Positions 3 to 64,000 of a stretch of 64,000 bases of DNA are shown here, in pieces; the first letter of the stretch is position 1; every line of letters starts with the position of its first letter. Under the pieces are notes generated by a model, which was not told the origin of the DNA, made no database searches, and saw only the letters and a list, made by a program, of their open reading frames with translations. The position numbers and the translations under genes were made by a program. The DNA comes from Chthoniobacteraceae bacterium (GTDB taxonomy: Bacteria > Verrucomicrobiota > Verrucomicrobiia > Chthoniobacterales > Chthoniobacteraceae), in assembly GCA_049521415.1 (NCBI GenBank), contig JBEKOV010000001.1, forward strand, positions 28,808 through 92,807, written 5' to 3'.

Positions 3-1001
3 GGGCTGGTGCTGGTGGGGGGCTTCGGCGCGGGCGCGGTGCTGCACGGGCATCTGGACGTGGGGCATTATGTGCAGTTTCTGATGCTGGCGCCGTTTTT
101 GTATGACCCGATCGGGCGGCTGCATCAGTTGAATCAGCTTTTCCAGGCCGGGCGCGCGGCGGGGGAGCGGGTGTTCGAGATTATGGATGAGAAGGCGGAG
201 CCGGGGGAGTCGGCGGGGGAGGAGGAGGTCGAGCCGGTGCGGGGGGAGGTGGAGTTTCGGAATGTGTCGTTTGCCTATGATGAGGCGCTGCCGGTGCTGC
301 GCGGCATCCGGCTGCACGCGCAGCCGGGGGAAACGGTGGCGCTGGTGGGACAGACGGGGGCGGGAAAATCGACGCTGGTGAATCTGATCACGCGGTTTTA
401 CGAGTATGACTCGGGCGAGATTCTGATTGATGGGCGGCCGCTGCGGGAGCTGCCGAAGAACGCGCTGCGGCGGGCGGTGGGGATGGTGACGCAGGAGAGT
501 TTTCTGTTTAACGGGACGATTCGGGAGAATCTGCGGCTGGGGAAGCCGGATGCGTCGAGTGAGGAGATGATGGCGGCGCTGGAGGCTGCGAACGCGCGGG
601 AATTCGTGGATCGGACGGGGAAGGGGCTGGATACGATCGTGGGGGAGCGGGGTGTGAAGCTGAGCGTGGGGGAGAAGCAGCGGATTTCGATTGCGCGGGC
701 GCTATTGAAGGACCCGCCTATCCTGGTGCTGGACGAGGCGACGGCGAGCGTGGATACGACGACGGAGCGATTGATCCAGCAGGCGCTGGAGAGGCTGATG
801 GAGCGGCGGACGAGTTTTGTGATCGCGCACCGGCTATCGACGGTGCGGCATGCGGACCAGATCCTGGTGATGGAGCATGGGCGGATCGTGGAGCGCGGAC
901 GGCATGAGGAGCTGCTGGCGCTGGGCGGGATTTACGCGCGGCTGTGCGCGAATAGTTTCATGGATACCGGGGCGGGGCGGGTGGCGGAGGTGGTGGGGTA
1001 G
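3..1001 (+). CDS. ABC exporter, C-terminal ATP-binding domain (MsbA/ABCB-like fused permease-ATPase); 5' end outside window
   Basis: Walker A GQTGAGKST, ABC signature LSVGEKQRISIARAL, Walker B ILVLDEATASVD, H-loop VIAHRLST; frame open to window edge. Confidence 0.9.
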   Translation, partial: GLVLVGGFGAGAVLHGHLDVGHYVQFLMLAPFLYDPIGRLHQLNQLFQAGRAAGERVFEIMDEKAEPGESAGEEEVEPVRGEVEFRNVSFAYDEALPVLRGIRLHAQPGETVALVGQTGAGKSTLVNLITRFYEYDSGEILIDGRPLRELPKNALRRAVGMVTQESFLFNGTIRENLRLGKPDASSEEMMAALEAANAREFVDRTGKGLDTIVGERGVKLSVGEKQRISIARALLKDPPILVLDEATASVDTTTERLIQQALERLMERRTSFVIAHRLSTVRHADQILVMEHGRIVERGRHEELLALGGIYARLCANSFMDTGAGRVAEVVG

Positions 1002-1009
1002 AATCGGAT

Positions 1010-1474
1010 TCAAGTGGCCTGATGATCGTCGTCGTCATGCGGGTGAGGGTCGGGGCTGGACTGACCGGGCTCGCCGGGATGCCAATGGCCCTGCTGCTGA
1101 TGCTGCAATTGCTCGAGGCGTTCTTTTTGCATCTGCTGGAGCTTTGCCCGCTGGTCCGGGGTCAAATCGGCGGAGATTTGGGCGTAAGCCTGATCGAGGA
1201 CCTTGATGACATTGTCCGTACACTCGCCACGGTAACGATGGATATCCTCGGCGGCTTTCTGGACGATGGGCGTGATCTCCGCGACCTGGTCGGGAGTCAA
1301 TTCGAGCCGGGTTTTGAGGTGGTTGAGGATGCGGAGAGCGACTTCCGGCTCCTTGGGCTCGGCCAGGAGGCGGATCTTGGCCTCATACACGCCGAGCGCG
1401 CCGCCGGAGATGCCGCCGGTAACGAAGATGGCTACTGCGTAACCGATCGTTTTCCATTTGGAAAACCGGGTCAT
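1010..1474 (-). CDS. membrane-anchored periplasmic LTXXQ-repeat protein (Spy/CpxP-like), His/Asp-rich C-terminus
   Basis: Start chosen at MTRFSKWK (ATG 1474), which gives ATGA overlap with the upstream ORF; N-terminal TM segment; two LTPDQ motifs; tail HPHDDDDH. Confidence 0.6.
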   Translation of the reverse strand: MTRFSKWKTIGYAVAIFVTGGISGGALGVYEAKIRLLAEPKEPEVALRILNHLKTRLELTPDQVAEITPIVQKAAEDIHRYRGECTDNVIKVLDQAYAQISADLTPDQRAKLQQMQKERLEQLQHQQQGHWHPGEPGQSSPDPHPHDDDDHQAT

Positions 1475-1764
1475 GGAAGACCCGCGGTCGCGTCGTAGCT
1501 GGCGATTGACATCTCGACGCTGGGCACGGTGGTATCGGTCTTGTAGCTCCAGCCGACGGATATGGCCATGACCGCGATGGCGCACAGAAAGGCGCGGCGA
1601 AACCAGAGCATTTCCAGCCCGGGTGTGTCCCGGCCGGAGCCGGCCTTCCAGCCGGCGATGACGCGGGTGGCAAGGCCAAAGGGAGGTGTTTCCTCGGCGA
1701 TGGCGGGGGAGAACTGACCTGCGGCACGGAGGAGCCGGTCGATGGGTTGATCGGAATTTTTCAT
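1471..1764 (-). CDS. putative anti-sigma factor (single-pass membrane protein)
   Basis: 97-aa ORF coupled by 4-nt overlaps to the ECF sigma upstream and the LTXXQ gene downstream; central hydrophobic helix RRAFLCAIAVMAISVGW. Confidence 0.5.
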   Translation of the reverse strand: MKNSDQPIDRLLRAAGQFSPAIAEETPPFGLATRVIAGWKAGSGRDTPGLEMLWFRRAFLCAIAVMAISVGWSYKTDTTVPSVEMSIASYDATAGLP

Positions 1765-2348
1765 AGTTTTCCCTGGCTGTTGAGTTCCTGAAAAATCTTC
1801 TTGAGCTTTTGCCGTGCCCGGAAGGCGCGCACTTTGATGGTGGCGATGCTCCAGCCGGTGGCCTGTTTTATATCATCCATAGAATAGCCCTCCAAGTGAA
1901 GCATGGAGATGACAAGGCGATCCTGGGGATTGAGGGCGGCAAGGAGGGTCTCGACGAGGTCGCGCGAAGCGGCGCCGCTGGAGGGGTCGAGATCGGCCGG
2001 GGTGGCGGCAAGGGACTCGAGCAAGGCGGCCTGGTCGCTGCTGAGGTCCGACCAGCGCAGCTCCGGGCGGGAAGACTCCGCCTTGAGGGCATTGAGGCAG
2101 GTGTTGACGGCGATGCGTGAGACCCAATGTTCGACGGGGACTTTGCCGGAATATTGGTCAAGGTTTGAGAATACCTTGATGAAGACGACCTGGCAGAGGT
2201 CCTCCTCGCTGGAGCGGCGGGGCAGATGGGCGCGGACGAGCTTGAGGACGAGGGGATAGAGCTCGCGTATGAAGTCCGACGCCGCCCCTTCGTCCTGCCC
2301 GCGCAATCCGGCGAGGCAGGCTTCCATATCGAAGCCGGCATCAGCCAT
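1761..2348 (-). CDS. ECF-type RNA polymerase sigma-70 family factor
   Basis: Region 2 (DLCQVVFIKVF, HWVSRIAVNTCLN) and region 4 HTH (LEGYSMDDIKQATGWSIATIKVRAFRARQKL); start at MADAGF (ATG 2348), ORF could extend to 2435. Confidence 0.85.
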   Translation of the reverse strand: MADAGFDMEACLAGLRGQDEGAASDFIRELYPLVLKLVRAHLPRRSSEEDLCQVVFIKVFSNLDQYSGKVPVEHWVSRIAVNTCLNALKAESSRPELRWSDLSSDQAALLESLAATPADLDPSSGAASRDLVETLLAALNPQDRLVISMLHLEGYSMDDIKQATGWSIATIKVRAFRARQKLKKIFQELNSQGKL

Positions 2349-2573
2349 GGGAACATAGAGACGGAGTCCACACAGTGGTATGACAATCGGAGTGGGCGGG
2401 AGGTTACAACCAGCCGCCGCCCGGCGATCGCCCATATATTAGAGCCCGGGAGGGGGAGGCTGGGCGAGAAGATTCACGGCGCGGGAATGGTGTAACCTTC
2501 CCGGCGGGGCTGGTGTCATGACCGTTAGAGCGCGTCACTCAACCGAGCGCCGAAAATCAAAGTAAATACAAAC

Positions 2574-3302
2574 ATGAAACGAAATTTAATTCTCCCCATT
2601 CTCGCCTGCGGCGCCAGCCTGTTGCTGGCCACGGTCGCGCAGGCACAAAGTCCGGCCTTGGTGTCGGGTTCCTCTTCGGCAACGCCCGGCGAGGGTGGCG
2701 GCCATAGGCACGGCGGTGTGCTGGCGCACCTGACCTACGCACTGGGGCTCTCCGGCTCGCAGCAGGCGGAAATCGCGCCGATCATCGAAGCGGCCAAGCC
2801 GCAGTTGAAGCAAATCCACGATAACGCGCAGACGCAGCGCGACCAGGTGCTGAATAACGTGGGCGCCCAGATCACACCGCTGCTGACGCCCGATCAGCAG
2901 ACGAAGTTCGCGGCAATGTTGCAGAGATTTGAAAACGGGGGCGGCGCGGGGCGGCATTTCGGCAGGCATTTCAAGGGGGCGGGAGCGGGCGGCGCGGGAG
3001 GGCAGGGCGATATGCTGGCGAGGCTGACCACGCAGCTTGGCTTGACCACGGACGAGCAGGGCCAGATCAAGCCGATCCTTGACGCGGCGCACACGCAGAT
3101 CGAGTCCATCCGGCAAAATACCAGCCTCACGCCGGAGCAGAAGTTCGCGCAGATCAAGACCGTGATGGATGCGGCGCACGGGCAGATCAATGGAATCCTG
3201 ACGCCGGCTCAGCAGGAGCAATTGGCGTCACTCAAGGGCCAGTTTCATCACCATAATCATCACGGCTGGCCCTCCCCGAGCCCGACCACGAGCGGGAGTT
3301 AG
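2574..3302 (+). CDS. secreted LTXXQ-repeat protein (Spy/CpxP family-like) with His-rich tail
   Basis: Signal peptide MKRNLILPILACGASLLLATVAQA; repeated LTPDQQ/LTPEQK/LTPAQQ motifs; C-terminal HHHNHH. Confidence 0.65.
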   Translation: MKRNLILPILACGASLLLATVAQAQSPALVSGSSSATPGEGGGHRHGGVLAHLTYALGLSGSQQAEIAPIIEAAKPQLKQIHDNAQTQRDQVLNNVGAQITPLLTPDQQTKFAAMLQRFENGGGAGRHFGRHFKGAGAGGAGGQGDMLARLTTQLGLTTDEQGQIKPILDAAHTQIESIRQNTSLTPEQKFAQIKTVMDAAHGQINGILTPAQQEQLASLKGQFHHHNHHGWPSPSPTTSGS

Positions 3303-3330
3303 GGCGGCAGATTATATTTTGTGGGAAGCG

Positions 3331-3365
3331 CTGCCGCGGGGTTCGCCTCGCGGCAGTGTTTTTTT
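3331..3365 (+). terminator. rho-independent terminator after the LTXXQ gene
   Basis: 8-bp stem CTGCCGCG/CGCGGCAG (3331-3338 and 3349-3356) followed by TGTTTTTTT. Confidence 0.7.
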
Positions 3366-3789
3366 ACAGGGTCAAGGCGCGCTGCTGGCGCGAGGAACCC
3401 TGGCGGTATTGAAATGTCTGCGTGCCAAACCAGATGCTCAAGAGCCGCTGCCCATCCTGGGAAAGGGCGAATTTCACCTGCTGATGGATGGGAATCTGCG
3501 CGAGCGGAACGTCGGTGCCCTCGTGAATGATGCGCACATCAGCGGTGACAGGATAAACCTTCGTGTCCTTCCCCCTGCGGATGGTGACGGTATTGGCCGC
3601 GACATCGATGGCCGTCACGACGCCGTCCGAGGGCGAGAAGTGCTTGGTCTCGTAGGTCTGCCATTCGTCCCAATGCCCACTGCTGGGCTTGTACCTGGGC
3701 GCATTCGCGCAGGCGGAAATGACGAGGGCAGCCGCCGCGCAGCCGGCGATGCGGAAGGGGAACTTTCGGGAACAAATAAGGACGGGCAC
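3364..3789 (-). CDS. small lipoprotein, unknown function
   Basis: No ATG; GTG at 3789 gives VPVLICSRKFPFRIAGCAAAALVISAC with lipobox-like VISAC. The upstream part of ORF 3364..4071 overlaps the next gene and looks non-coding. Confidence 0.5.
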   Translation of the reverse strand: MPVLICSRKFPFRIAGCAAAALVISACANAPRYKPSSGHWDEWQTYETKHFSPSDGVVTAIDVAANTVTIRRGKDTKVYPVTADVRIIHEGTDVPLAQIPIHQQVKFALSQDGQRLLSIWFGTQTFQYRQGSSRQQRALTL

Positions 3790-3856
3790 AGTGTCAACCT
3801 TGGCCCGTGAAACTCCAATTTTCAAGCGGGGGCTTAAACCCAAAATCTGAAGTTGT

Positions 3857-4732
3857 TTAGATGAGCGGACGCGCGACGATGATGCCGGCGTCGCTGCGAT
3901 AACGGTCGAGATAATCGGAGAGCCGGTCGTCGATGACGACGCGGCCGTAATTGTTCGGCGATGAGGCGTGCATGAAATGAACGACGCCCATCCCGTCGCG
4001 GTAGGCCATGCCGACGTGGGCCGTAGAGATGAGGCCATCCTCGCGCGAGGTGACGCAAATGATATCGCCATCCTGAAGGTATCGCTCGATGTAGGGCACG
4101 CGGCTCTTGGGGATGTGATACATGGGCCGGGCGGTGACGCGATCCTCCATTTCCTGGAGGGGGCCGAGGAGGTCGGGATTGGCGCGAAGGTAACGGTATT
4201 CGCGCCAGCCGTCGGTCATTTCGCTGGCCTCGTGCGGGACGCGGACTCCGCCGAGCACGCGGGTCATGTCCCTGACGAGGCCGCGCCGGTCATTGTCGTA
4301 AAGCCAGTCTTCGAGATAATGGAGGCGGGAGAGATATTGGCCGGTGCAATGGCCGCCGCGGTAACGGTCGAGCTCGATGAAATGCAGCATCGACTGAGGG
4401 GTCCAGGCCTCGCGCGGCTCGCCGACCATGCGGGCGAAGGCGAGCGAGGTCTCGAAGAAGGTCCAGCAATCGAGACCGTTGAAATCGACCGACGGCGCCT
4501 CGACGTGGTCGTCGATTTCGAGGGTGAACGAGCGATAGGGCGTGCCGACGAGCGCGCGGCCGACGGCGCATGTGCGTTCGCCAATGGGCAGGGCTTTCCA
4601 GTTTTCCTGTTCGGCGCGCTGGATCAATTCGTCGAAACGGTCGCGTCCGCGGAAGACGAGATTGAAAGGCAGACCGGCGAAGGCCGGCAGCGCCAGGAAG
4701 ACAAACAAGAGGGTGAGCAGGCGAATCTTCAC
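3857..4732 (-). CDS. DUF1460-like (N-acetylmuramoyl-L-alanine amidase-like) secreted protein
   Basis: GTG 4732 gives VKIRLLTLLFVFLALPAFA signal peptide; conserved-looking GTPYRSFTLE...VDFNGLDCWTFFETSLAFA block recalled from the DUF1460 family. ATG alternative at 4855. Confidence 0.6.
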   Translation of the reverse strand: MKIRLLTLLFVFLALPAFAGLPFNLVFRGRDRFDELIQRAEQENWKALPIGERTCAVGRALVGTPYRSFTLEIDDHVEAPSVDFNGLDCWTFFETSLAFARMVGEPREAWTPQSMLHFIELDRYRGGHCTGQYLSRLHYLEDWLYDNDRRGLVRDMTRVLGGVRVPHEASEMTDGWREYRYLRANPDLLGPLQEMEDRVTARPMYHIPKSRVPYIERYLQDGDIICVTSREDGLISTAHVGMAYRDGMGVVHFMHASSPNNYGRVVIDDRLSDYLDRYRSDAGIIVARPLI

Positions 4733-15565: not shown

Positions 15566-15629
15566 CTGGCGGAGATCTCGCCAGGAATGAGGAGCGCGAA
15601 GCGAGCCCAACATGCGGGGAGGGCGAATG

Positions 15630-15702
15630 GGTGGCCGACGGGACTCGAACCCGCAACAGCCAGAACCACAATCTGGAGCTCTACCATTGAGCTACGGCCA
15701 CC
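15630..15702 (-). tRNA. tRNA-His (anticodon GTG) with encoded G-1
   Basis: Hand-folded cloverleaf: G-1, acceptor GTGGCCG/CGGCCAC, D arm GCTC/GAGC, anticodon arm CCAGA-TTGTGGT-TCTGG, T arm GCGGG-TTCGAGT-CCCGT, discriminator C. Confidence 0.95.
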
Positions 15703-55321: not shown

Positions 55322-56107
55322 ATGAAAAGATACGGACAAACTCTCACGTGGGGACCGCTTTCGGCCCCGGCATTTTTCAGCGGGGAACCTATTTCCTACT
55401 CGCTCAGGGACGGGGCGACCAAGCAGCTCATCGACGGGGCGGCGGGCGACTGGCTGGCGATGGCGCTGCACTCACGGAAGGCGGAGATCGCCTTCGAAGC
55501 GAAGTGCACGGTCGCCTCGACCAACTTCCTGGACCTGAGCGTTGGGGCGGCGATTGCGCTCTCCACGATCTCGAGCACGGGATCGATCCTTGTCTCGCGC
55601 GCGGTCGAGCGCTGGCGGCTGAACCAGGCGAAGACGGCCTCGATAGAGGCGCTGTGGCTGCCGGACGGGACGCCGAACAGCCCGGCGCTTGCGGGAACTA
55701 CGGGGACGGCGTTCACGCCGGACCAGAGCGGATCGACGATTGTGACGCCGGGATCGGCGCTCATATATTCGACCTACGGCTTCACGCACGCGAAGGGGCT
55801 GGTGCATGAGCTGACGCTGACGCAGAGCCTGCGCATCACCGAGGATGATCCGTCGCCCGACGGGCTGATCCTGGGGGCGGCGGCGGACGGGTACGAGCAG
55901 ACGATTAATCTGCTGTTGCTGGCGCAAATCCCGAGCACGACGAGTCCGATGACGGATTACCCGGCGGTGGGCAGCACACTGGTGATCGGGGGGGGAACTG
56001 CGTCCATGGCCGATTTCATCATCACCAACAGCGGGCCGGCGATGGAGATGGAAAAAGGGATGATGTACTCCATCGACGCGAGCTGGATTCCGCCGTTCAC
56101 AACCTGA
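55322..56107 (+). CDS. candidate major tail (tube) protein
   Basis: 261 aa, first gene of the rightward block, three genes before the tape-measure-like gene; position only. Confidence 0.55.
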   Translation: MKRYGQTLTWGPLSAPAFFSGEPISYSLRDGATKQLIDGAAGDWLAMALHSRKAEIAFEAKCTVASTNFLDLSVGAAIALSTISSTGSILVSRAVERWRLNQAKTASIEALWLPDGTPNSPALAGTTGTAFTPDQSGSTIVTPGSALIYSTYGFTHAKGLVHELTLTQSLRITEDDPSPDGLILGAAADGYEQTINLLLLAQIPSTTSPMTDYPAVGSTLVIGGGTASMADFIITNSGPAMEMEKGMMYSIDASWIPPFTT

Positions 56108-56140
56108 TCTCAAACAACCCAATGAAAGGCATACATCGAT

Positions 56141-56401
56141 ATGGAAACTAAACCAAGTCCCACCGCGGCTCCAGCCGCTGCACCCGCGCCCGCGGCTCCG
56201 AATGCCGCCGGCAAAGCCACCAAGGCCGAACTCAACGCGGCAATCGCCGAGGCCGACGCCATCGTGGCTTCCATCGCGAAGCTGCAGGCGTCGCTGAACG
56301 TGAATGACACCAAGTTCATCGCGGTGACCGTCGGCGTGGCGTCCGAGCGGCTGCAGGAAGCGCAACGGTATCTGCGGAACAAACTGCCGAAGGCGGTCTA
56401 G
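56141..56401 (+). CDS. hypothetical protein (tail assembly chaperone position)
   Basis: 86 aa, Ala/Pro-rich N-terminus then helical. Confidence 0.5.
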   Translation: METKPSPTAAPAAAPAPAAPNAAGKATKAELNAAIAEADAIVASIAKLQASLNVNDTKFIAVTVGVASERLQEAQRYLRNKLPKAV

Positions 56402-56404
56402 GCC

Positions 56405-57043
56405 ATGGAGGGGCCGGCCGCGGAAGAAGAAGACGGGCTTGCGGGGCTGCGGGAGCTGCAGGCGCAACTGGCCGGCACGGCGCAGAGCCCGTGGCAGCCG
56501 CGGTGCGTGGCGAGGGCGTTCCGGACTCCGGCGGCCTCGCATGCGTTTGTGTTCACGATGCAGGCGTGGATCGACCTGGATGCCGTACAGTCGCCCTTCC
56601 TGCTCGAAGAGCTGCCGGACCCGGACCTGGGGCATGAAGCGATCATCAGGGCCTTTGAAGAGGCGTTCGCGGCATTTGGCCATACGAGCACGACGCCGGC
56701 GGAATGCGCGCCGTTCGAATTGGCGCTGCTGGGCAAGAGCATGATTCGGGTGATCCGGCAGGGATTCGCGATGCGGCTGCGGATGAATCCGCCGAAGGGA
56801 ATGGAGAGCGGCGGCGGGGATGACGGATTCGGCGACTGGCTGCCGGTGATGGCGTGCCTGAAGGCGCAGCTCTATTTCGGCTGGGAAGAGGCGCTGGCGA
56901 TGCACGTGGAGAGGGCGCTGGCGGTGGTGAACGCGCACCGGCGCAACGAGGGATGGACGCCGGCGGAAACGCCGTATGCATTGAGAGACGTGTCCCCCGT
57001 GTCCCACGGGGGCGCGGAGAGCGGGGAGGAACAGCATGGCTGA
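56405..57043 (+). CDS. hypothetical protein (tail assembly chaperone position)
   Basis: 212 aa, overlaps the next gene by 8 nt. Confidence 0.5.
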   Translation: MEGPAAEEEDGLAGLRELQAQLAGTAQSPWQPRCVARAFRTPAASHAFVFTMQAWIDLDAVQSPFLLEELPDPDLGHEAIIRAFEEAFAAFGHTSTTPAECAPFELALLGKSMIRVIRQGFAMRLRMNPPKGMESGGGDDGFGDWLPVMACLKAQLYFGWEEALAMHVERALAVVNAHRRNEGWTPAETPYALRDVSPVSHGGAESGEEQHG

Positions 57044-58373
57044 GCCGGTCAAAATCGTCATCTCGGAGACGCGGGAGGGGAACGCGATCGACGAGGAGCA
57101 GCGAAGGATCGAGCAGCTCCACAAGGCGGCGGAGCAATACGCGAAGACGCCGGGGATGGAGGGGGCGGCGAAATCGGCGCGCGCCGAGGCGATGGAGCTG
57201 CAAAAGAAACAGCTTGGAACGAGGCTGGCGCAGGAGGCGCATGCGCGGGCGGCCGGCAACGGCGAGGCGGCGGACCAGGCGGCGCGCGAGGCGAAGGAGA
57301 TGGAGCGGACGATGCAGCTCCAGCGCAAGGGAGGGATGGGTTATGACCAAGCCGCGAAGACGGCGCGGCGGCAGCTCAACCAGGAGGACGAGGCGGCGGC
57401 GCTGAAGAAGGCGGGGATCGAGAAGATGGGCTATACGCGGGCGCGGCAGGAAGCGCTGACGCTGGCGCGGGAATTGGCGACGGGCGCGCCGACGGGGCGG
57501 ACCTTGAGCGCGCTGCTGGGGAACCTGATCGGAGGGATGGCGCCGGAGGCGCTGGCCGCCGCCGCTGGGATTGCGGCGCCGGTGGCGCTCGTTGGCGGCG
57601 CGTATCTGTTCAACCGCGACCAGAGGGAGCAGGATTACCAGGAGCAGAACAAGATGAGCGAGGAGCAGGCGGGGGATGAGCGCGCGCAGGAAATCGCGCG
57701 CAGCCCGCTGGGAAGCGACTCGGGGAGCTTCCAACAGGAGGTGAGCGATGAGAGCACGATCAAAAAAGATGAGGCGGATCGCGGGCGGCTGGAGCACGCG
57801 CGGAAGCACGCGTGGTTTGGGCTAAAAGACAAGCTTGCGAGCCTGACCGGAGGAAGATGGAAAACGCAGGAGCAGAGAGATCAAATCGACAACGAGAATG
57901 AGATCAAACGGGCCGAGCGCGACAAACGCGCGTCGCAAAAAAGCCTCAGGGAACAATGGAATACGGGGGGCGCGTATGATGAGAAAATCCTGGAAGACCT
58001 CTCGGAGCACAGCGTGGCTGGGGTGAAAAAGGCGACGGTCGACACCGCGAAGAAAAGCTGGATGGCGGCTTACCGCAGGTCCGTCGCGGAAGGGGCGAGC
58101 CGGGACGACGCGCTGAAGATCTCGGATTTGACGGCGAAGCAGGCGGATTGGGAACGCGCGCAGGCGCGCGGCGCGGGCCTTGTAAACGCGCAGACGGGCA
58201 ATGCCGGGGCGGCGGCGGCGGCGCGCTGGGCGGACACGGGCATCGTGGGGCCGGGGATGGACGCGCTGCTGGCGGAGATGCGCTCTTCGAAGGTCGCGTC
58301 GCAGGCCGCATTCGACAAGCTGACCGACAGCCAGGTGCGCGTGGATCAAAGCGGGAAGCCTTTGACGCCATGA
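57036..58373 (+). CDS. tape-measure-like protein
   Basis: Charged coiled-coil sequence with a central hydrophobic Gly/Ala segment LSALLGNLIGGMAPEALAAAAGIAAPVALVGGAYLF. Confidence 0.6.
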   Translation: MAEPVKIVISETREGNAIDEEQRRIEQLHKAAEQYAKTPGMEGAAKSARAEAMELQKKQLGTRLAQEAHARAAGNGEAADQAAREAKEMERTMQLQRKGGMGYDQAAKTARRQLNQEDEAAALKKAGIEKMGYTRARQEALTLARELATGAPTGRTLSALLGNLIGGMAPEALAAAAGIAAPVALVGGAYLFNRDQREQDYQEQNKMSEEQAGDERAQEIARSPLGSDSGSFQQEVSDESTIKKDEADRGRLEHARKHAWFGLKDKLASLTGGRWKTQEQRDQIDNENEIKRAERDKRASQKSLREQWNTGGAYDEKILEDLSEHSVAGVKKATVDTAKKSWMAAYRRSVAEGASRDDALKISDLTAKQADWERAQARGAGLVNAQTGNAGAAAAARWADTGIVGPGMDALLAEMRSSKVASQAAFDKLTDSQVRVDQSGKPLTP

Positions 58374-59161
58374 TTTACGGGACGCCGCCGGTAAAACTGG
58401 AGACCGATGTGACCGACGTGATCGGCATCCGGACGCTGGTGCTGGGGCAGATGTGGCAACCGTCGGCGAGCAACCTCTCGCAGGAGCAGATCGACGCGGA
58501 GTCGCCGGACATTCCGGGGGTGCCTGGGGGGCTGATTCTGGTGGGGCAGCAGTGCCGACCATTCGGCGGATGCTACAAGACGACGTGGACCTTTGAGGGG
58601 ATCCTCGGCGACGGGAAATCGGTCACGTTCAAGGATCGCACCAACTCGCTTGATTACGGGTTCGATCCGGGGTTCGCCCAGGTGCCGATCCAGACGCATC
58701 CCTATTTTCAGGACATGCTGACGCAATTCGGCGGCTACCCGGACCCGTCCAGCAGCACGGTGATCTGGCCCACGACGATGCCGGCGGCGTCTGCATCTGG
58801 GGGCGGAAGCACGGGGATGCCGGGGGGATCGAGCGCTGGGAGCGCGACGCCGAACCCGATGTTTGGGCGGCAGGATTATTTCTCGCTGGATGGGCAATAT
58901 TACATGCGGTACGCGCTGCTGACCAAGCCGACCGGGTATTCGAATATCAACCTGATCGTGGATACGAGCGAGCTGCCAGGCGATCCCCCGAGCGATCTGC
59001 CGAGCGACCGCAACTGGCTGGTGGTTCCTCCCACCTACAAGCGGCGCGGGCTGATCTTTGAGGTGATGGAAACGTACTGGCTGAGCTATGAGGGAGGGTG
59101 GAACATCCCAAGCTATACCAAGCCCAGCGGCCAGGGCACATGGAGCATCCCGACCTCATGA
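58370..59161 (+). CDS. hypothetical tail protein (distal tail position)
   Basis: Start MIYGTPPVKL (ATG 58370), ATGA-coupled to the tape-measure stop. Confidence 0.55.
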   Translation: MIYGTPPVKLETDVTDVIGIRTLVLGQMWQPSASNLSQEQIDAESPDIPGVPGGLILVGQQCRPFGGCYKTTWTFEGILGDGKSVTFKDRTNSLDYGFDPGFAQVPIQTHPYFQDMLTQFGGYPDPSSSTVIWPTTMPAASASGGGSTGMPGGSSAGSATPNPMFGRQDYFSLDGQYYMRYALLTKPTGYSNINLIVDTSELPGDPPSDLPSDRNWLVVPPTYKRRGLIFEVMETYWLSYEGGWNIPSYTKPSGQGTWSIPTS

Positions 59162-59697
59162 GCGGCGCCGCGCAAATCAGGCCGGGAGTGGGACTCAGGA
59201 CCGTCAGAACGATGATGGGCTTCGGCATGACGTCAGCCGGCGGAGGCGGTTCGTTTCTGCATCCCTTCTATCCCACCCTCAATGGGATTGCGGGCGTCCA
59301 GTTCTCACGCGGTCTGGTGAGCTATATCGAGCCGACGATCGAGGGCGTACCGATCTCCGGGATGGTCAACGGGGTGCAGGGGCCGCCGCCGGTGCTGCCG
59401 CTCGATCCGAATGTGATCGGCGCCGGCGACAACCGCACGTGGGCCTGCGCGGAGATCACGGTCGACGCGAAGGGGATGATCAGCCCGGCTTCCACCGTGG
59501 TAATGGCGCACCGGGCGACGTGGTTTCTCCAGGACCCGCTGGGAAAGACGGGGCGCTGCCCGGTGTGCATGATCCTCTGGAATGGCAGAGTGCCCTCGCA
59601 GATTTTTCACATTCTCTATTTCAACCCGGTGGCGCAGATGGTGACGCTGCCGACAGGTGGCACCGGCGCGGGCGTCGTGAAGTTTTTCTTCCTGTGA
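59158..59697 (+). CDS. hypothetical tail protein
   Basis: Start MSGAAQIRPG (ATG 59158), ATGA-coupled. Confidence 0.55.
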   Translation: MSGAAQIRPGVGLRTVRTMMGFGMTSAGGGGSFLHPFYPTLNGIAGVQFSRGLVSYIEPTIEGVPISGMVNGVQGPPPVLPLDPNVIGAGDNRTWACAEITVDAKGMISPASTVVMAHRATWFLQDPLGKTGRCPVCMILWNGRVPSQIFHILYFNPVAQMVTLPTGGTGAGVVKFFFL

Positions 59698-59719
59698 CCA
59701 GCATGATGCCGGACCCGAT

Positions 59720-59756
59720 ATGAAAATTTCGAAACTCTCGAAAATCCCATCGAACC
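59720..59756 (+). repeat. A-rich array S4
   Basis: ATGAAAATTTCGAAACTCTCGAAAATCCCATCGAACC forms the first codons of gene 59720. Confidence 0.7.
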
Positions 59757-60817
59757 CGGACGCCGTGGCGATCATGCCTGGGAGCGGGGCGCGCGTCTCG
59801 ATGCGAGGAGGGATCGGGCGGACGCTGCAACTGAGCCCGGAGACGGGCTGGAAGCATCCGTGGCAGATCACGCTGCTGTGGGACGGGACGCGGCAATTGT
59901 GGACATCGACCATGAAGGCGGGCTTCGTGAACGGGGAGTGCCCGGTCGTCATCTCAACGGCCGGGAGCGACGCGAACCCGGCGAACTGGCAGCAATTCGG
60001 CATCAACCCGCTCACCGGGGAGCCGTTTTTTTCGGCATGGGTTTTTAATAATGCGGCGCCCGCCATCGCGCCCGCGACGACGGTGTGGCTGCCTCTTTAC
60101 TCGAATCCGTTGATCGACCTGAGCTGGTATAACATCGGGTCCGACGACGCGACGGCGCAGAACGCGGTGCCGCAATTCTTTCTCAACCTCGGGGTGACGC
60201 CGGCGACGCCGATTGACCCTGACGATCCCGACCAATCCGCGGGGGCTCCCCCCCCGGCCGGGAACCGGCTCTTGCGCGCCTGTGATTTGATTTTGCACCA
60301 GCCGCACGTGGCACTGACCTCCCAGATCACGCTGGCGCCTGGGATCGTCACCGGGGAGAGCAACGTGTCGCAGACGCTCGGGCTCACGCAGATCGACCCA
60401 AGCGATACGCTGAAGATGTACGCCCAGGCAGGCGCCTTCAGCCCGGAGGACGCAATCGCCGCCGGCATCGATCCGTCGACCGGCGATTACACGGAGCCCG
60501 CTTACGACGAGATTCTGATTGGGACGGCTTACCTGTTGAGTCCGCCGAATACCGAGCCCTACTCGATGCCCGATCAGACCTGGCAGCCGTATGTCAGCCA
60601 CTCGCTGTTTTGGAATCTGTTTTGGGCGCAACCGGAATTTCAGCCCACGCCCGCCGAAGCTACCGACGCATTCGGCCAGCTCGCCCAACTCACCTCTGTG
60701 CTCGGGGCCGGAGCGGGATCGGTGGCGATAAATTACATCACCTCGTCGCTCACCGATGCATACCAGGCCGCGACGAACATACTCGTTGCGCAATCCATGG
60801 CCGGCTCTTTCTGGTAG
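59720..60817 (+). CDS. tail-associated hypothetical protein, 3' end truncated by transposon insertion
   Basis: Stop codon TAG 60815-60817 lies inside the transposon terminal repeat; the frame continues at 63243 once the element is removed. Confidence 0.7.
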   Translation: MKISKLSKIPSNPDAVAIMPGSGARVSMRGGIGRTLQLSPETGWKHPWQITLLWDGTRQLWTSTMKAGFVNGECPVVISTAGSDANPANWQQFGINPLTGEPFFSAWVFNNAAPAIAPATTVWLPLYSNPLIDLSWYNIGSDDATAQNAVPQFFLNLGVTPATPIDPDDPDQSAGAPPPAGNRLLRACDLILHQPHVALTSQITLAPGIVTGESNVSQTLGLTQIDPSDTLKMYAQAGAFSPEDAIAAGIDPSTGDYTEPAYDEILIGTAYLLSPPNTEPYSMPDQTWQPYVSHSLFWNLFWAQPEFQPTPAEATDAFGQLAQLTSVLGAGAGSVAINYITSSLTDAYQAATNILVAQSMAGSFW

Positions 60818-60821
60818 TGTC

Positions 60822-61286
60822 CTAATTTGAAATGCTGGGAGGCGGCGGAACGGCTCCCGAATTGTCATTCTGGATATTCAAATTCACCTGCGGCGCAGGA
60901 GGTCCTAGTCCCATGCTGAAAAGGATTCTGTGCGGAATTTGGTCGTCAATTGCAAATATCTTCGATTGGGTGAACTGCCCGTCCATGCTGGGAATGGCCC
61001 TAATCACGGTATTCTTGGCAAAGAGCCCATCTATAGACCTCCCTGATAGCGTTGGAGTCCCCGAAGGATCAGGCGTCCCGCCAACAGTCACAACGATTGG
61101 CGCATTTCCGATGTAATCGCTATTGATTTCAATCCGAGCCCCCGGGGGCTCGGATATGATCTGGATTTGATAGCCACTGGTTGGCAATCGCTCGGACTGA
61201 GCCATGGTTTGCTGAATTGGAGGAGTGTTTGACGCGCACCCCGCCATGAGGAGAATCAGGGCGGCAAAACTGCTGCGAAGGATCAT
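60822..61286 (-). CDS. lipoprotein with PEGA-like domain (transposon cargo)
   Basis: MILRSSFAALILLMAGC lipobox-like; IISEPPGARIEINSDYIGNAPIVV PEGA-type motif. Confidence 0.7.
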   Translation of the reverse strand: MILRSSFAALILLMAGCASNTPPIQQTMAQSERLPTSGYQIQIISEPPGARIEINSDYIGNAPIVVTVGGTPDPSGTPTLSGRSIDGLFAKNTVIRAIPSMDGQFTQSKIFAIDDQIPHRILFSMGLGPPAPQVNLNIQNDNSGAVPPPPSISN

Positions 61287-61389
61287 GGGGCTATCAATGG
61301 TGATTTTTTGCTCCTTGGTAAAGCTGTTTACACAATATGGCCGTTGTGGTAGCGTCTTTCCCGTATGGAGCTTGTGCCGACTGATTTTG

Positions 61390-61695
61390 CTACCCGGAGG
61401 GAGGAGGAGTATTTGGAGCGGGGGATTCGCGTAGCCAAATCTTGGACAATTCTCGGCGATCTAATAGGGCAGCTAATGCCGGATTGCGATTCTCCAGCTT
61501 CTCCAGAAGCCTCTGGTGAAATTTCTCCTCCTGCATCTGTAAATCAGTGACAATATCCTTCTCGCTTCGTCCTGTGATGGACGAAAGCAGAAAGCCGACC
61601 AAAGTTTCTAAGGCGTAGATTTTACCTAATAGTTCTAGGTTTTCTGCCTTCAACTCAAGAATTGCGATGTGGAGATCATCCTTTTTTTTGCTCAT
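61390..61695 (-). CDS. hypothetical helical protein (cargo)
   Basis: 101 aa, ATGA-coupled to the upstream ORF. Confidence 0.5.
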   Translation of the reverse strand: MSKKKDDLHIAILELKAENLELLGKIYALETLVGFLLSSITGRSEKDIVTDLQMQEEKFHQRLLEKLENRNPALAALLDRRELSKIWLRESPAPNTPPPSG

Positions 61696-61985
61696 ATCTT
61701 TTTCGCCGCTGCCGCAATCGCAACCTTAACCGCCATCTGCGCGGAATCCACAGGCGGAATCTCCAGCACGGCAATCGTCTTCGTTTTACCGTCCTCCTCG
61801 TAGCTCCAGGCATAACAGCGTTTCGCCTTGGGATGGCCGGTAATGTCGTAAATCTCTACGACCCCCTCCCACGCCACCAGCTTTCGGAAGACTTCGCGAA
61901 CGGGTACAGACTCGACGTGCTTCGCTTTGGCACCATGAACAGCCAGAATCGCCCGCTGGTGCTCTTTAATCGTCTCAGGCTGCAT
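61692..61985 (-). CDS. hypothetical conserved-looking small protein (cargo)
   Basis: 97 aa; VEIYDITGHPKAKRCYAWSYEE...VLEIPPVDSAQMAVKVAI; start overlaps the transposase stop by 11 nt. Confidence 0.55.
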   Translation of the reverse strand: MQPETIKEHQRAILAVHGAKAKHVESVPVREVFRKLVAWEGVVEIYDITGHPKAKRCYAWSYEEDGKTKTIAVLEIPPVDSAQMAVKVAIAAAAKKI

Positions 61986-62799
61986 CTATGAGGTCCGTGA
62001 TGGAAAGATGCGTCCTCTCGATTCCTGCGGCCATTGCCGGGGTGCAACGGATGGTGGAGTGCGTTTTCACGAAGTTGTAATATGCCAGATGCAAGGCGAT
62101 GGCAGCTTTGAAATTCTCCAGCTTTTTTGAAAATGCCAGCGTGAGCCGGGCGAGCCGCCTGCAATGGGTCCGAACCGTCAGGTTTGAACGCTCGATATAG
62201 GACGTGCAGACAAGCTCCGGGATTGGGTCGCCATTGATGGCGCTCTTGAACACAGAAGAGAGGCGGGAGGGGCTGTACCTACGGGCCTCCTCTTTGGAGG
62301 GGGCACAGTATTCTTTTACAATCTGCCCGTAGTCCACGTCCCCGCCGAAGGCCATTTCCACGGCATCGGGGTAGGCTCCCATGGCATCGGAGGACAACTG
62401 GATGCGATTGCATAGCCGCGCAGCCAAATCCTGCATGAAAGTGACGGCGTGGTAGCGGTCCCGCTGTCCCACCAGAAACGAGGGCATCAGCTTTGTCTCG
62501 GGGTCGATGGATAGAAACGTCCAGACATCCCCGAGCCCGGCGCGGCGATCTACGGCATTGGCGCGTTTCTGCTTCTTGCCCACGAATCCCCAAATCTCAT
62601 CCACTTCAATGCGGGTGCAGAGCAGGGCGCGCATTTTGGCGTCCATCAGCTTCTCGCATCCCTGCCCGACCCGGACGCCCAGCCGCATGATCGTGTCGCG
62701 GTGGATGCCGGTCATGCGCTCAATGGAGCGGATGGAGTTTCCTTCCGCGAGAGCGGAAATCACGGTCGCCTGTTTTTCAGTGGGAAGCACGTTTGCCAT
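61975..62799 (-). CDS. IS1 family DDE transposase
   Basis: Start MANVLPTEKQ (ATG 62799); N-terminal HTH GNSIRSIERMTGIHRDTIMRLG; DDE-like EVDEIWGFVGKK, SSDAMGAYPD, YIERSNLTVRTHCRRLARLTLAFSKK. Confidence 0.8.
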   Translation of the reverse strand: MANVLPTEKQATVISALAEGNSIRSIERMTGIHRDTIMRLGVRVGQGCEKLMDAKMRALLCTRIEVDEIWGFVGKKQKRANAVDRRAGLGDVWTFLSIDPETKLMPSFLVGQRDRYHAVTFMQDLAARLCNRIQLSSDAMGAYPDAVEMAFGGDVDYGQIVKEYCAPSKEEARRYSPSRLSSVFKSAINGDPIPELVCTSYIERSNLTVRTHCRRLARLTLAFSKKLENFKAAIALHLAYYNFVKTHSTIRCTPAMAAGIERTHLSITDLIDAA

Positions 62800-62809
62800 G
62801 GGAATAAAT

Positions 62810-62852
62810 GTAGACGCAAAATTAACTTGTGTCCACATATTTTTGCGTCTAC
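62810..62852. promoter_or_regulatory. 12-bp perfect inverted repeat just upstream of the transposase start (candidate operator or promoter)
   Basis: GTAGACGCAAAA (62810-62821) and TTTTGCGTCTAC (62841-62852), 19-bp spacer. Confidence 0.5.
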
Positions 62853-62888
62853 GAAAAAGAAAGGGCCGGGACTTGTGATTCCCGGCCC
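62853..62888 (-). terminator. rho-independent terminator (minus strand)
   Basis: Stem GGGCCGGG/CCCGGCCC with a 10-nt loop, followed on the minus strand by TTTCTTTTT. Confidence 0.6.
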
Positions 62889-62894
62889 TCAATT

Positions 62895-62967
62895 GGGAGC
62901 GTAAGCTAACCGGCAAACCCCGCGTTTCTACACCCCGGGATTGCGAGTTCGAGCCTCGCCGCTTCCA
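62895..62967 (+). ncRNA. 73-nt tRNA-like element or possible pseudo-tRNA, CTA at the anticodon position
   Basis: Acceptor GGGAGCG/CGCTTCC (one G-U), perfect T arm GCGAG-TTCGAGC-CTCGC, U8 A14 G18 G19 A21 U33 in register; D stem 2/4 pairs and anticodon stem 3/5 pairs. Confidence 0.4.
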
Positions 62968-62970
62968 AAA

Positions 62971-63153
62971 TTATGCGGTTGCCTCCAAAAGTCGCTCCCT
63001 CATCCATTCCCCCCGGCGCTGGCCTTGGGCCTTGGCTTTGCGGTCGATCTTTTGGGCCTCTTCCTTACTGAAGCGGAGGGGCCACACGAAGGCACGAGGG
63101 GACGCGGAACGCGGTCGCCCCGGACCCCTTGGGGTTTCAAGTCGTTTGCTCAT
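62971..63153 (-). CDS. small ribbon-helix-helix / MobC-like DNA-binding protein (first gene inside the right transposon end)
   Basis: 60 aa; RAFVWPLRFSKEEAQKIDRKAKAQGQRRGEWMRERLLEA fits the RHH beta-alpha-alpha pattern. Confidence 0.55.
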   Translation of the reverse strand: MSKRLETPRGPGRPRSASPRAFVWPLRFSKEEAQKIDRKAKAQGQRRGEWMRERLLEATA

Positions 63154-63242
63154 GGTGATTTACGTATACCATAAATCGGTTGTGTGGTCAACTGATTCGT
63201 TGGCTAGTGAAATCCGGGATGGGGTCAAATTAGGACACTACC

Positions 63243-63453
63243 CTCTTTCTGGACGCCGACGGGGGGCGGCTCGACATCGCTTTTTCCTCCAGCCCCTCCC
63301 GTGCCGGTCACCGCGCCCTCCGGGAACGGCATGGACAAGAATGGGCTCATCCGGGCGCAGGCCGCGGCGGCGGCGCTCGCGCTGGCATCGCAACAACTCG
63401 ACCCGGCTTTCCCCTTCACGGCACTGCAATTCAACGTAGCCCTCCTTTCCTGA
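63243..63453 (+). pseudogene. displaced 3' segment of the interrupted tail gene
   Basis: Open frame through the right target duplication (tct ttc tgg acg...) in the same codon phase as the left copy; ends at TGA 63451-63453. Confidence 0.65.
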
Positions 63454-63475
63454 ACCTCATTGAGGCCTTCCAACT

Positions 63476-64000
63476 ATGCCTAATCCATCTCAGCTCGTGA
63501 ATGTCGATTTGACCGGGAAAACCAGCGACTGGACACCCCCTCCGATTACCTTCGGCGAGGATCTGACGCTGGTGCTGCGATTCACGATTGACAACAACGG
63601 CAGCGCGATCTCGCCAAACATGACGATCACCGGGATGAAGGCGAGTGTGGGCAATGTAGATGCGCGGCCCCTGGGGGGCGGCACATGCCTAGTGATCGGA
63701 AACGGGCCGGCCAGCTCGGCCAATACGACGGCGCCCATCCTCTTCAATGATCTTCCAAGCACGGTGGCGGCGAAGATCAATGCGTTGTCGGGAGTGGTGG
63801 CAGCCTATGGGATATGCAAGGCGTTCTCGGTTCCCGGTGGCTACGCGCTCTTCTTTGGGACCAGGGCGGCGGAAGTCCCGATCTCGGCGACGAATAATCT
63901 GCTGTGGCCGGTGAGTTTTGTGCGCGTGAGCGCGTGGCAGAATGGAGCGGAGTGGGTTCACCAGGTGCGCTTCACGCAGGCGCCGGTGGCTTTTACCTCT
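63476..64000 (+). CDS. hypothetical phage structural protein, 3' end outside window; not in the ORF track
   Basis: ATG 63476, 175 codons open to the window edge: MPNPSQLVNVDLTGKTSDWTPPPITFGEDLTLVLRF... Confidence 0.6.
   Translation, partial: MPNPSQLVNVDLTGKTSDWTPPPITFGEDLTLVLRFTIDNNGSAISPNMTITGMKASVGNVDARPLGGGTCLVIGNGPASSANTTAPILFNDLPSTVAAKINALSGVVAAYGICKAFSVPGGYALFFGTRAAEVPISATNNLLWPVSFVRVSAWQNGAEWVHQVRFTQAPVAFTS

Follow-up and report, generated by a model that had tools for sequence, protein, structure and literature searches.

A probable IS1-family transporter insertion sequence in a Chthoniobacteraceae chromosomal gene, with a conserved core and a tRNA-like RNA

Introduction

Here, we describe a mobile element in a 64,000-nucleotide (nt) stretch of DNA from a Chthoniobacteraceae bacterium of the phylum Verrucomicrobiota (GenBank assembly GCA_049521415.1, contig JBEKOV010000001.1, positions 28,808 to 92,807 of the forward strand). 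This whole stretch is called the window below, and positions are counted from its first letter. We put the probability at roughly 85% that the segment at 60813-63242 is an intact, probably recent insertion of a transporter-type insertion sequence (IS) of the IS1 family in a conserved chromosomal gene of the Chthoniobacteraceae. The element is a transporter IS with a three-part conserved core. Its transposase belongs to a family that moves segments bounded by the conserved ends GGTAGTGTCCTAATTTG, making target duplications of 8 bp and sometimes of 9 bp. Two genes that might be taken for its cargo, a small gene that we call ORF97 and a gene for a probable ribbon-helix-helix (RHH) protein, belong to the family core, and one branch, with the RHH gene upstream of the transposase, has that gene paired tail to tail with a tRNA-like RNA. 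Individual loci used in the comparisons are referred to by L numbers.

Element boundaries and composition

The element is 2,430 bp long and is bounded by terminal inverted repeats of 18 nt, the left one, GGTAGTGTCCTAATTTGA at 60813-60830 on the plus strand, being the exact reverse complement of the right one at 63225-63242 on the minus strand. A first-pass annotation, made from the sequence of the window, had described these repeats as perfect and 17 bp long; perfect they are, but at 18 nt. A window-wide search for GGTAGTGTCCTAATTTGA with up to three mismatches returned these two sites only, with 0.02 expected from shuffled sequence, and the same 17-18-mer ends 56 relatives that have target duplications. 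Abutting both element ends is the 8-bp direct repeat CTCTTTCT, read directly at 60805-60812 on the left and at 63243-63250 on the right, exactly the target-site duplication that the first-pass annotation had proposed; it occurs as a single copy in the related contig L041. On either side, CTCTTTCT is followed by GG. Since the uninterrupted target in L041 reads CTCTTTCTGG, this GG belongs to the target, and 8 bp is therefore the parsimonious length of the duplication.

The GC content is 0.544 within the element, 0.642 in its near flanks and 0.617 in the remaining window, values with which the earlier estimate by eye (about 50% inside versus over 60% outside) roughly agrees. Five open reading frames (ORFs), which we count as non-overlapping, lie within the element, and all five are also gene calls on a public contig of the Joint Genome Institute (JGI). 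The statement that every ORF lies on the minus strand holds for these five, but the tRNA-like element lies on the plus strand.

Within the 18-nt end, which reads GG-TAG-TG-TCC-TAA-TT-TGA in the inward direction, each of the three frames has a stop codon (TAG, TAA and TGA), and any incoming host gene is closed within 18 nt. These all-frame stops may contribute to the extreme conservation of the ends across phyla.

The interrupted gene and its chromosomal setting

When 60813-63250 (the element plus one copy of the duplication) is deleted, the ORF at 59720-60817 fuses in frame with 63251-63453 to encode a protein of 431 amino acids (aa), with codon 364 at the point of insertion. The 5' part of this host gene (59720-60812, plus strand, 364 codons) now ends at a TAG supplied by the transposon (...TGG TAG), and the 3' part (63251-63453, plus strand) comprises 67 codons. 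Intact homologs of 431 and 433 aa align with the restored protein at 84-85% identity and 99-100% coverage. Their alignment is gap-free over the junction, where ...AQSMAGSFW meets TPTGGGSTS..., and invariant residues are found on both sides, even in Chthoniobacter flavus.

An empty site of the kind that the first-pass annotation had anticipated was reached via a protein homolog of the interrupted gene. In L041 the sequence reads ...CCATGGCGGGCTCTTTCTGGACGCCGACGG..., with a single CTCTTTCT; the blocks aligning L041 with window 57607-60814 and 63243-64000 overlap by exactly the duplicated bases, and synteny resumes right after the single CTCTTTCT at 87% DNA identity. The exact 30-nt empty-site pattern had no match in viral contigs.

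The right junction deserves particular attention, as it is known from the window record alone. A 92-kb JGI contig that carries the identical element (3300041432, Ga0439247_0000013, our L001) stops 6 nt inside the right repeat, at window position 63236, and the window record runs 764 nt beyond that end. Contig ends of this sort are typical of assembler breaks at repeated or polymorphic elements, and one could suppose that the window's right junction was likewise produced by the assembly, a repeat having joined the element to a flank that does not belong to it. We regard this as extremely unlikely. The right flank opens with the same 8 bp as the left one, the interrupted reading frame carries on into it, and L041 is syntenic with it at 87% identity; matching duplication, in-frame restoration of the host gene and synteny together validate the junction. 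The end of the JGI contig suggests, rather, that its assembly was broken at the element by copy number or by presence/absence polymorphism in the community.

The setting of the insertion is chromosomal, and nothing supports the prophage that the first-pass annotation had envisaged. None of the 10 large neighbouring ORFs matches PHROGs, and their only Pfam matches are PATR and He_PIG. The syntenic cluster in L041 begins with a sigma-70-like gene, followed by eight unannotated genes, the target gene and a 769-aa gene, and it ends beside the genes for ribosomal proteins S4, S11 and S13, together with those for IF-1, methionine aminopeptidase and adenylate kinase.

This cluster (window 55322-63453 plus a next gene starting at about 63477; L041 1-9629) comprises about ten genes and is conserved in Chthoniobacteraceae. 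It is headed by a sigma-70-region-2 protein, adjoins the ribosomal-protein genes and has no Pfam or PHROG annotation. The insertion takes the conserved C-terminal 67 residues off the host protein and is probably polar on the downstream 769-aa gene. By itself, it is a routine event, in which an IS disables the C-terminus of a conserved gene with no assigned function.

The transposase and the family assignment

The transposase is encoded by a single ORF at 61975-62799 on the minus strand, and its 274 aa comprise a DDE enzyme with an N-terminal helix-turn-helix (HTH). Its earlier description as IS1-type was sound. The motifs EVDEIW, SSDAMGAYP and YIERSNLTVR...RLARLTLAFSKK are all present in the protein, and Pfam DDE_Tnp_IS1 (PF03400) matches residues 198-238, the C-terminal IERSNLTVR...FSKK region, with 36.6 bits against a cut-off of 24.1. 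The best-scoring NCBIfam family is transpos_IS1 (NF033558), over residues 7-147. NCBI gives the identical protein the name IS1 family transposase, a name that NCBI and JGI also use for its relatives. These number at least 7,830, and among the 120 listed most are 272-276 aa long, all have PF03400 and many bear the same name, as do plasmid relatives from cultured Alphaproteobacteria at 42-46% transposase identity. The element ends read GGTAGTG, and IS1-family ends in the ISfinder family table reportedly start with GGT or fit GGnnnTG.

Several observations weigh against a straightforward IS1 assignment. The transpos_IS1 match, at 54.6 bits, falls below the equivalog cut-off of 100, and the Pfam match is confined to the C-terminal motif of the protein. 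Classical IS1, about 770 bp long, joins its two genes, insA and insB', through a -1 frameshift and has a zinc finger in the InsA protein; the two ORFs, the programmed frameshift, the zinc finger and the small size are all missing here. The N-terminus gives sub-threshold matches to HTH_29 and HTH_28, and a Cys-rich motif is absent. With a single 274-aa ORF, an HTH and no zinc-finger motif, the element therefore falls in a divergent single-ORF branch of IS1 rather than among the classical two-ORF frameshifting type.

We also considered, and rejected, a programmed frameshift that would join ORF97 to the transposase, by analogy with InsAB'. Gene overlaps here are short, of the ATGA type, 4-11 nt long and variable between elements, as expected for translational coupling.

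Assignment to IS1595, the sister family of IS1, would account for the 8-bp duplication, the single-ORF transposase and the passenger genes, all of which have reportedly been described for IS1595-family members. The profile searches point elsewhere: Pfam gives DDE_Tnp_IS1, the top NCBIfam family is transpos_IS1, and neither scan of the transposase lists an IS1595 model at E<=1. The transposase N-terminus, moreover, is a plain HTH. We consider membership of IS1595 very improbable and retain the assignment to IS1.

A clade of elements with nearly unchanged ends

The exact 18-mer is present in 39 IMG/VR contigs and occurs as paired ends, 423-5,166 bp apart, in 12 of them. These 12 elements include six with a perfect 8-bp duplication, one with a perfect 9-bp duplication and one whose duplication matches at 7 of 8 positions. 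A protein-guided scan of species-representative genomes added 80 loci with 55-76% transposase identity, from Verrucomicrobiota, Acidobacteriota, Steroidobacteraceae, Fibrobacterota and others. The 17-mer, allowing up to four mismatches, brackets the transposase in 66 of the 80, and 56 of the 80 have perfect duplications (50 of 8 bp and six of 9 bp), all of different sequence. We see an abundant IS1-type clade whose ends remain nearly unchanged even at 55% transposase identity and whose members are never bare.

The 56 confirmed elements range from 2,017 to 6,486 bp, with a median of 2,989 bp, and none consists of a bare transposase. In this ranking, 11 are shorter than the window's element and 45 are longer; it is therefore not unusually loaded for its clade, and the claim in the first-pass annotation that its cargo was large and unusual for the family is not supported.

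The 56 relatives represent independent insertions with the same ends. As to further copies of the element in the genome, which the first-pass annotation had suggested as a check, no second copy of the exact element was found; this counts against our reading and makes current activity no more than a possibility. BLASTN of the whole element against phage and plasmid collections gave no match. Two metagenome scans, with element-specific patterns for the right and the left end, were also empty; the collection evidently does not include the source sample, because the left-end pattern is present in the known JGI source contig, and the scans are thus uninformative on copy number.

Miniature derivatives without a transposase, 423-790 bp long, share these ends and mostly have perfect 8-bp duplications (L014 615-1037, L025 9637-10138, L010 2397-3169, L006 4664-5452 and L031 5176-5965). 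The one in L014 keeps the tRNA-like RNA, the one in L031 an ORF97 homolog and the one in L006 a C-terminal remnant of the transposase. Several 18-mer matches in the IMG/VR contigs L002-L040, which are classed as viral, sit about 110-130 nt from the end of the locus.

Core genes and passengers

To separate core from cargo, we combined ORF calling with BLAST clustering over 59 confirmed elements, a procedure that yields lower bounds for RHH genes. Every one of the 59 has both the transposase and an ORF97 homolog, and at least 48 have an RHH gene. ORF97 starts at or just before the transposase stop codon in every element. The RHH gene occupies one of two positions, either divergently upstream of the transposase (mostly in Verrucomicrobiota) or after ORF97 at the end of the element (mostly in Acidobacteriota).

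Two further genes, both on the minus strand, complete the window's element. ORF101 (61390-61695; 101 aa) has no family match, and its start overlaps the ORF97 stop by 4 nt (ATGA). A probable lipoprotein of 154 aa (60822-61286), which is also a JGI gene call, has a signal peptide ending in LMAGC and a PEGA domain (Pfam PEGA, 22.5 bits against 20.8). Clustering showed no homolog of either in the 58 other elements, and phmmer at E<=1 likewise gave none among the 11,496 ORFs of all fetched loci. Relatives whose transposases are 80-86% identical to the window's carry entirely different passengers, and those sampled across the family include PIN, DUF4411, HTH with ImmA/IrrE (M78) peptidase, N6 and N4 DNA methylases, zeta toxin, SDH-type protease, Bro-N, DUF433 and an IGPS enzyme. 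The core stays fixed while passengers are exchanged rapidly, and the clade shuttles toxin-antitoxin-type, methylase and other accessory genes.

The first-pass annotation had treated everything beyond the transposase as cargo, namely the RHH gene, the tRNA-like element, two small coupled ORFs and the lipoprotein. That list stands for ORF101 and the lipoprotein, which are the only true passengers here; ORF97 and the RHH gene are family core, and the tRNA-like element is the partner of the RHH gene in one branch. It could be maintained that all five features are the cargo of an otherwise minimal, unusually loaded IS1 element. In its favour, the four non-transposase proteins lack above-threshold matches to transposition-related families, and IS copies with passenger genes are already known (PMC3129680, PMC7986276). 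The survey speaks strongly to the contrary. ORF97 is found in 59 of 59 elements over several phyla, at transposase identities down to 55%, the RHH gene in at least 48 of 59, and the tRNA-like/RHH module is conserved in position, whereas the real passengers differ wholly even at 80-86% transposase identity. The survey refutes the all-cargo explanation for ORF97 and RHH, and at 55-76% transposase identity the surveyed loci are not recent copies of one element; taken as a whole we judge the explanation highly improbable and keep to a conserved core with two passengers.

Elements of the Acidobacteriota type show two further arrangements. In L064, L088, L112, L114 and L117, two tandem ORF97 paralogs follow the transposase, and in many elements of this type a conserved ORF of about 290 aa lies directly upstream of the transposase, sometimes in frame with it.

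ORF97

ORF97 (61692-61985, minus strand) encodes the small core protein, and its first 11 nt are also the last 11 of the transposase gene. Both the constancy of this position and the overlap at the start point to co-translation with the transposase, and position and conservation together suggest a role in transposition or its control. Its 584 relatives are all unnamed, and none has a Pfam domain. AlphaFold, given an alignment of 70 sequences, predicts an alpha-beta4-alpha fold (pLDDT 89, pTM 0.77).

Against the proposed role stands the absence of sequence or fold relatives. ORF97 has no match in Pfam, NCBIfam, PADLOC, PHROGs or a PDB sequence-profile search, and Foldseek of the model against PDB and BFVD gave no significant neighbour (best E about 0.15-0.2, TM <=0.4). 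Weak resemblances to cystatin-like scaffolds and to double-stranded RNA-binding domains (TM <=0.36, E >=0.2) were rejected as noise.

The RHH gene and nearby signals

The probable RHH protein (CopG/Arc/NikA-like), encoded at 62971-63153 on the minus strand, has 60 aa and an isoelectric point of 11.6. Its gene converges on the tRNA-like element, with the stop codon 3 nt from the RNA 3' end. Its Pfam matches are all sub-threshold (NikA-like at 25.1 bits with a cut-off of 27, DUF6290 at 15.8 and RHH_1 at 12.1), and NCBIfam gives weak matches to MobA, VapB and RelB. A profile built from the family's own RHH genes recognizes it at E=1.9e-17. Its size, basic N-terminal arm and sequence pattern are consistent with an RHH protein, and 47 family sequences share GRPKLPKG...SEWIR (family motif GRP(K/R)...SEW(I/M)R).

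In most relatives with an upstream RHH gene, it diverges from the transposase over a spacer of 59-89 bp, a layout that is classic for an autoregulator. In the window, a 15-nt imperfect palindrome, GTAGACGCAAAATTA / TATTTTTGCGTCTAC, lies at 62810-62852, just upstream of the transposase start, and overlaps promoter-like hexamers on both strands; it is a candidate operator. At 62851-62890 (minus strand) there is a hairpin of 11 pairs followed by a T-run, resembling an intrinsic terminator and lying after the RHH gene and the antisense of the tRNA-like element and before the transposase promoter region. By our reading, L078 and L097 have comparable hairpins next to the tRNA-like element, with A-runs before them. 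The regulatory role that we propose for the RHH protein is inferred from position and conservation.

The tRNA-like RNA

The tRNA-like RNA gene lies at 62895-62967 on the plus strand. Its acceptor stem (GGGAGCG/CGCUUCC) has a G3·U70 pair and is followed by A73; the T arm is canonical, the D arm weak and the anticodon arm irregular, with the loop UUUCUACAC. The first-pass annotation had recognized a tRNA-like element here and was right to do so. The Rfam tRNA model (RF00005) aligns with it over its full length at 27.6 bits (E=0.006), just below the gathering score of 29, and 7 of 10 sister copies pass that score, at 34-49 bits. ARAGORN makes no call on the window's copy. In many relatives it reports equivalents 250-360 nt upstream of the transposase, under the labels Stop(tta), Pyl(cta), Val(tac) and SeC(tca) or with 4-base anticodons.

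A covariance model of the family was built from 12 copies. Over the 80 genome loci, it finds 14 strong copies (54-89 bits) and four weak ones in the equivalent place, and it also finds the window's copy (81 bits), those of L125 and L127 and those of the viral loci L013 and L014. The copy in L014 sits in a 423-bp miniature element. Genuine tRNAs in the flanks reach at most 43 bits under this model, and two of the best three are tRNA-Ala genes. The same 74 nt in L125 are 93-94% identical to the window's, compared with only 78% for the transposase DNA, and with respect to the transposase they point the other way. An RHH gene converges on the RNA in 16 of 20 cases, with its stop codon 2-33 nt from the RNA 3' end; the window and L127 have the whole RHH/tRNA-like module turned round with respect to the transposase.

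The pattern of substitution in 15 copies is that of a structured RNA. In the acceptor and T stems, 99% of the cells are paired, compared with 85% in shuffles and 44-51% in slid registers, and 8 of the 13 acceptor and T-stem pairs show double compensatory changes, a number reached by none of 500 shuffles. G3·U70 is present in all 15 copies, G1-C72 and G2-C71 are likewise invariant, and every member of the 12-sequence alignment has A73. Few changes are seen in the D arm, which is conserved; the consensus structure does not recover the anticodon arm, and calls on single sequences show it mismatched. G·U pairs are many and A·C oppositions nearly absent, and the strand under selection is therefore the tRNA-sense one. 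The purifying selection on this structured RNA is clear.

A number of features weigh against a normal tRNA or against our reading of the RNA. The window's copy falls under the Rfam gathering score and has two mismatches in the D stem. The anticodon stem is mismatched, and the conserved loop, YUU-ACA-C, is ambiguous in register, giving either UAC or UUA/CUA. In the T-loop, C often stands in place of the U55 of tRNAs, and energy alone yields a cloverleaf in just 2 of the 15 copies. No sigma-70-type promoter shared upstream of the RNA was seen. Elements of the Acidobacteriota type do without the RNA, which is therefore not essential for transposition. No CCA is encoded.

Several of these features would be expected if the sequence were a decaying tRNA-Ala pseudogene, captured once and carried along as a functionless hitch-hiker, or if it were merely DNA or a 3' untranslated part of the RHH transcript. 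The anticodon arm is irregular, the D stem is mismatched both in the window and in L125, and the scarcity of cloverleaves by energy fits equally well. The Rfam scores of 27-49 bits lie well under the 64 bits of the sole genuine tRNA in the same search, and the element is absent from many family members. If the hairpins in the window, L078 and L097 are read, as we read them, as terminators on the RHH strand, then the complement of the element is probably part of the RHH mRNA. Decay is hard to reconcile with the double compensatory substitutions in 8 of 13 pairs, or with the invariance of G3·U70, A73 and the loop letters ACA. The 93-94% identity between elements whose transposase DNA is 78% identical, and the retention of the RNA even in a 423-bp miniature element, also speak for constraint, and the G·U-rich, A·C-free pattern marks selection on the tRNA-sense RNA and not on its complement. 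On balance, we find the pseudogene explanation unlikely, and we consider it likely that the tRNA-like RNA is functional.

What the function would be is a separate matter. The proposal that the RNA is a charged recoding tRNA, or a mimic of one, is a speculative one. More specifically, a widespread clade of these transposons in soil Verrucomicrobiota could encode an RNA derived from tRNA-Ala, which has kept the identity mark and lost the alanine anticodon; the RNA would then be either a recoding tRNA charged by alanyl-tRNA synthetase (AlaRS), inserting alanine at valine or stop codons, or a mimic coupling the RHH/transposase circuit to host tRNA processing or charging. If this were so, the alanine-marked RNA and the fold-orphan ORF97 would together constitute a previously unrecognized layer of transposon control. 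We hold this version to be just as doubtful as the general one. A role as stop-codon suppressor, which the TTA, CTA and TCA anticodons called by ARAGORN might suggest, was down-weighted, the register being ambiguous and the invariant ACA fitting UAC as well. It was down-weighted further in view of the poor anticodon stem and of the transposase ORFs of elements bearing the tRNA-like RNA, which are uninterrupted except for a split gene in L048.

Several side observations concern this and other RNAs. A strong copy (84 bits) in L013, at 153-229 on the minus strand, lies about 690 nt outside the element assigned there (915-3942); this copy may be part of a neighbouring partial element, or the element's left end may have been placed wrongly. 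Between 20 and 70 nt upstream of the tRNA-like RNA in L072, L074, L125, L099 and L049 are one or two short hairpins with loops (C/U)UCCAA(A/C), which may be a further conserved RNA feature of the module. In other paired-end segments, ARAGORN reports long atypical tRNA-like genes, a Gly-ccc of 89 nt in L002 (10251-10339, minus strand) and an Ile-tat of 96 nt in L029 (4941-5036, minus strand). The segments measure 2,140 bp, with a perfect 8-bp duplication, in L002 and 5,166 bp, without one, in L029, and both encode methylase-type proteins; neither RNA matches the family covariance model. The sole canonical tRNA gene of the window is tRNA-His(GTG) at 15629-15701 on the minus strand.

Proposed mechanism

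From these observations, a working model of the element can be outlined. The N-terminal HTH of the transposase would bind the terminal repeats, and ORF97, made in step with the transposase, would act as its partner or regulator. The basic RHH protein may repress the promoters of the element. In the window, where the module is inverted, the terminator-like hairpin would shield the transposase from read-through out of the RHH gene. The tRNA-like RNA, presumably a descendant of a tRNA-Ala gene, would be transcribed towards the 3' end of the RHH gene. It is probably recognized by tRNA-processing enzymes and possibly by AlaRS. Rather than decoding normally, it most likely controls the RHH/transposase circuit; convergent or antisense transcription would be one route, and sensing of the host tRNA machinery another.

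Charging or tRNA-like processing of the RNA, if it occurs, would link the regulation of a transposon to the translation apparatus, and another natural tRNA mimic would be added to the few known. There is also a practical consequence, as the ARAGORN labels (suppressor, Pyl, Val) can mislead surveys of genetic codes or tRNA repertoires in metagenome-assembled genomes from soil and in viral contigs.

Comparison with known systems

Rfam has no dedicated family for the transposon's tRNA-like RNA, and the searchable literature yielded nothing relevant on ISMhu11, on the end sequence or on tRNA-like elements in IS. We found no description of the universal ORF97 partner, the RHH protein or the alanine-pair tRNA-like RNA in that literature. 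To our knowledge, no other bacterial DDE insertion sequence has a conserved tRNA-like gene.

For the RNA, the nearest known systems are tRNA-Ala and the tRNA-like domain of transfer-messenger RNA (tmRNA). G3·U70, with A73, is the identity determinant of AlaRS; here neither varies, nor do G1-C72 and G2-C71, and the remaining acceptor-stem pairs covary. The loop, UUUACAC, differs by a single base from UUUGCAC, which we take to be the loop of tRNA-Ala(UGC). Unlike in tRNA-Ala, the loop reads UAC (Val) or UUA/CUA (stop) according to register and provides no alanine anticodon, the anticodon stem is mismatched, U55 is often C and there is no CCA; the gene, moreover, sits inside a transposon. The RNA differs from tmRNA in being without an mRNA-like domain.

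Among transposons, elements on alphaproteobacterial plasmids of Mesorhizobium loti (CP050295.1) and Hoeflea sp. (NZ_CP011481.1), annotated solely as IS1 family transposase, are similar in several respects. Their transposases are 44-45% identical to the window's, their ends, GGTAGTGGGTCAGTTTG and GGTAGTGTCTCAGTTTG, are related, and with 8-bp duplications and lengths of 3.4 and 4.2 kb they too carry passenger genes. They differ in that a profile search detects no ORF97 homolog in them. A further comparison is with IS1 of Escherichia coli, the family prototype. The window's transposase matches IS1 profiles, including the C-terminal IERxNLxxR...FSK, and duplications of 8-9 bp are common to both. 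Here, though, there is one 274-aa ORF with an HTH and no Cys motif, and the element extends to 2,430 bp, with three further protein genes, an RHH regulator candidate and an RNA gene.

Another parallel is the transporter IS (tIS), a term for IS copies with passengers that goes back to work on IS1595 and IS1 relatives (Siguier, Gagnevin & Chandler 2009, as cited in PMC3129680 and PMC7986276). The insertion itself is one more IS1-family tIS. As in other tIS, passengers unrelated to transposition lie inside a single pair of IS ends and travel along with these, and miniature derivatives with the same ends exist here. Two differences set this clade apart: extra genes are the rule, with all 56 confirmed elements at least 2.0 kb long, and part of the apparent cargo, namely ORF97, the RHH gene and the tRNA-like RNA, is conserved core.

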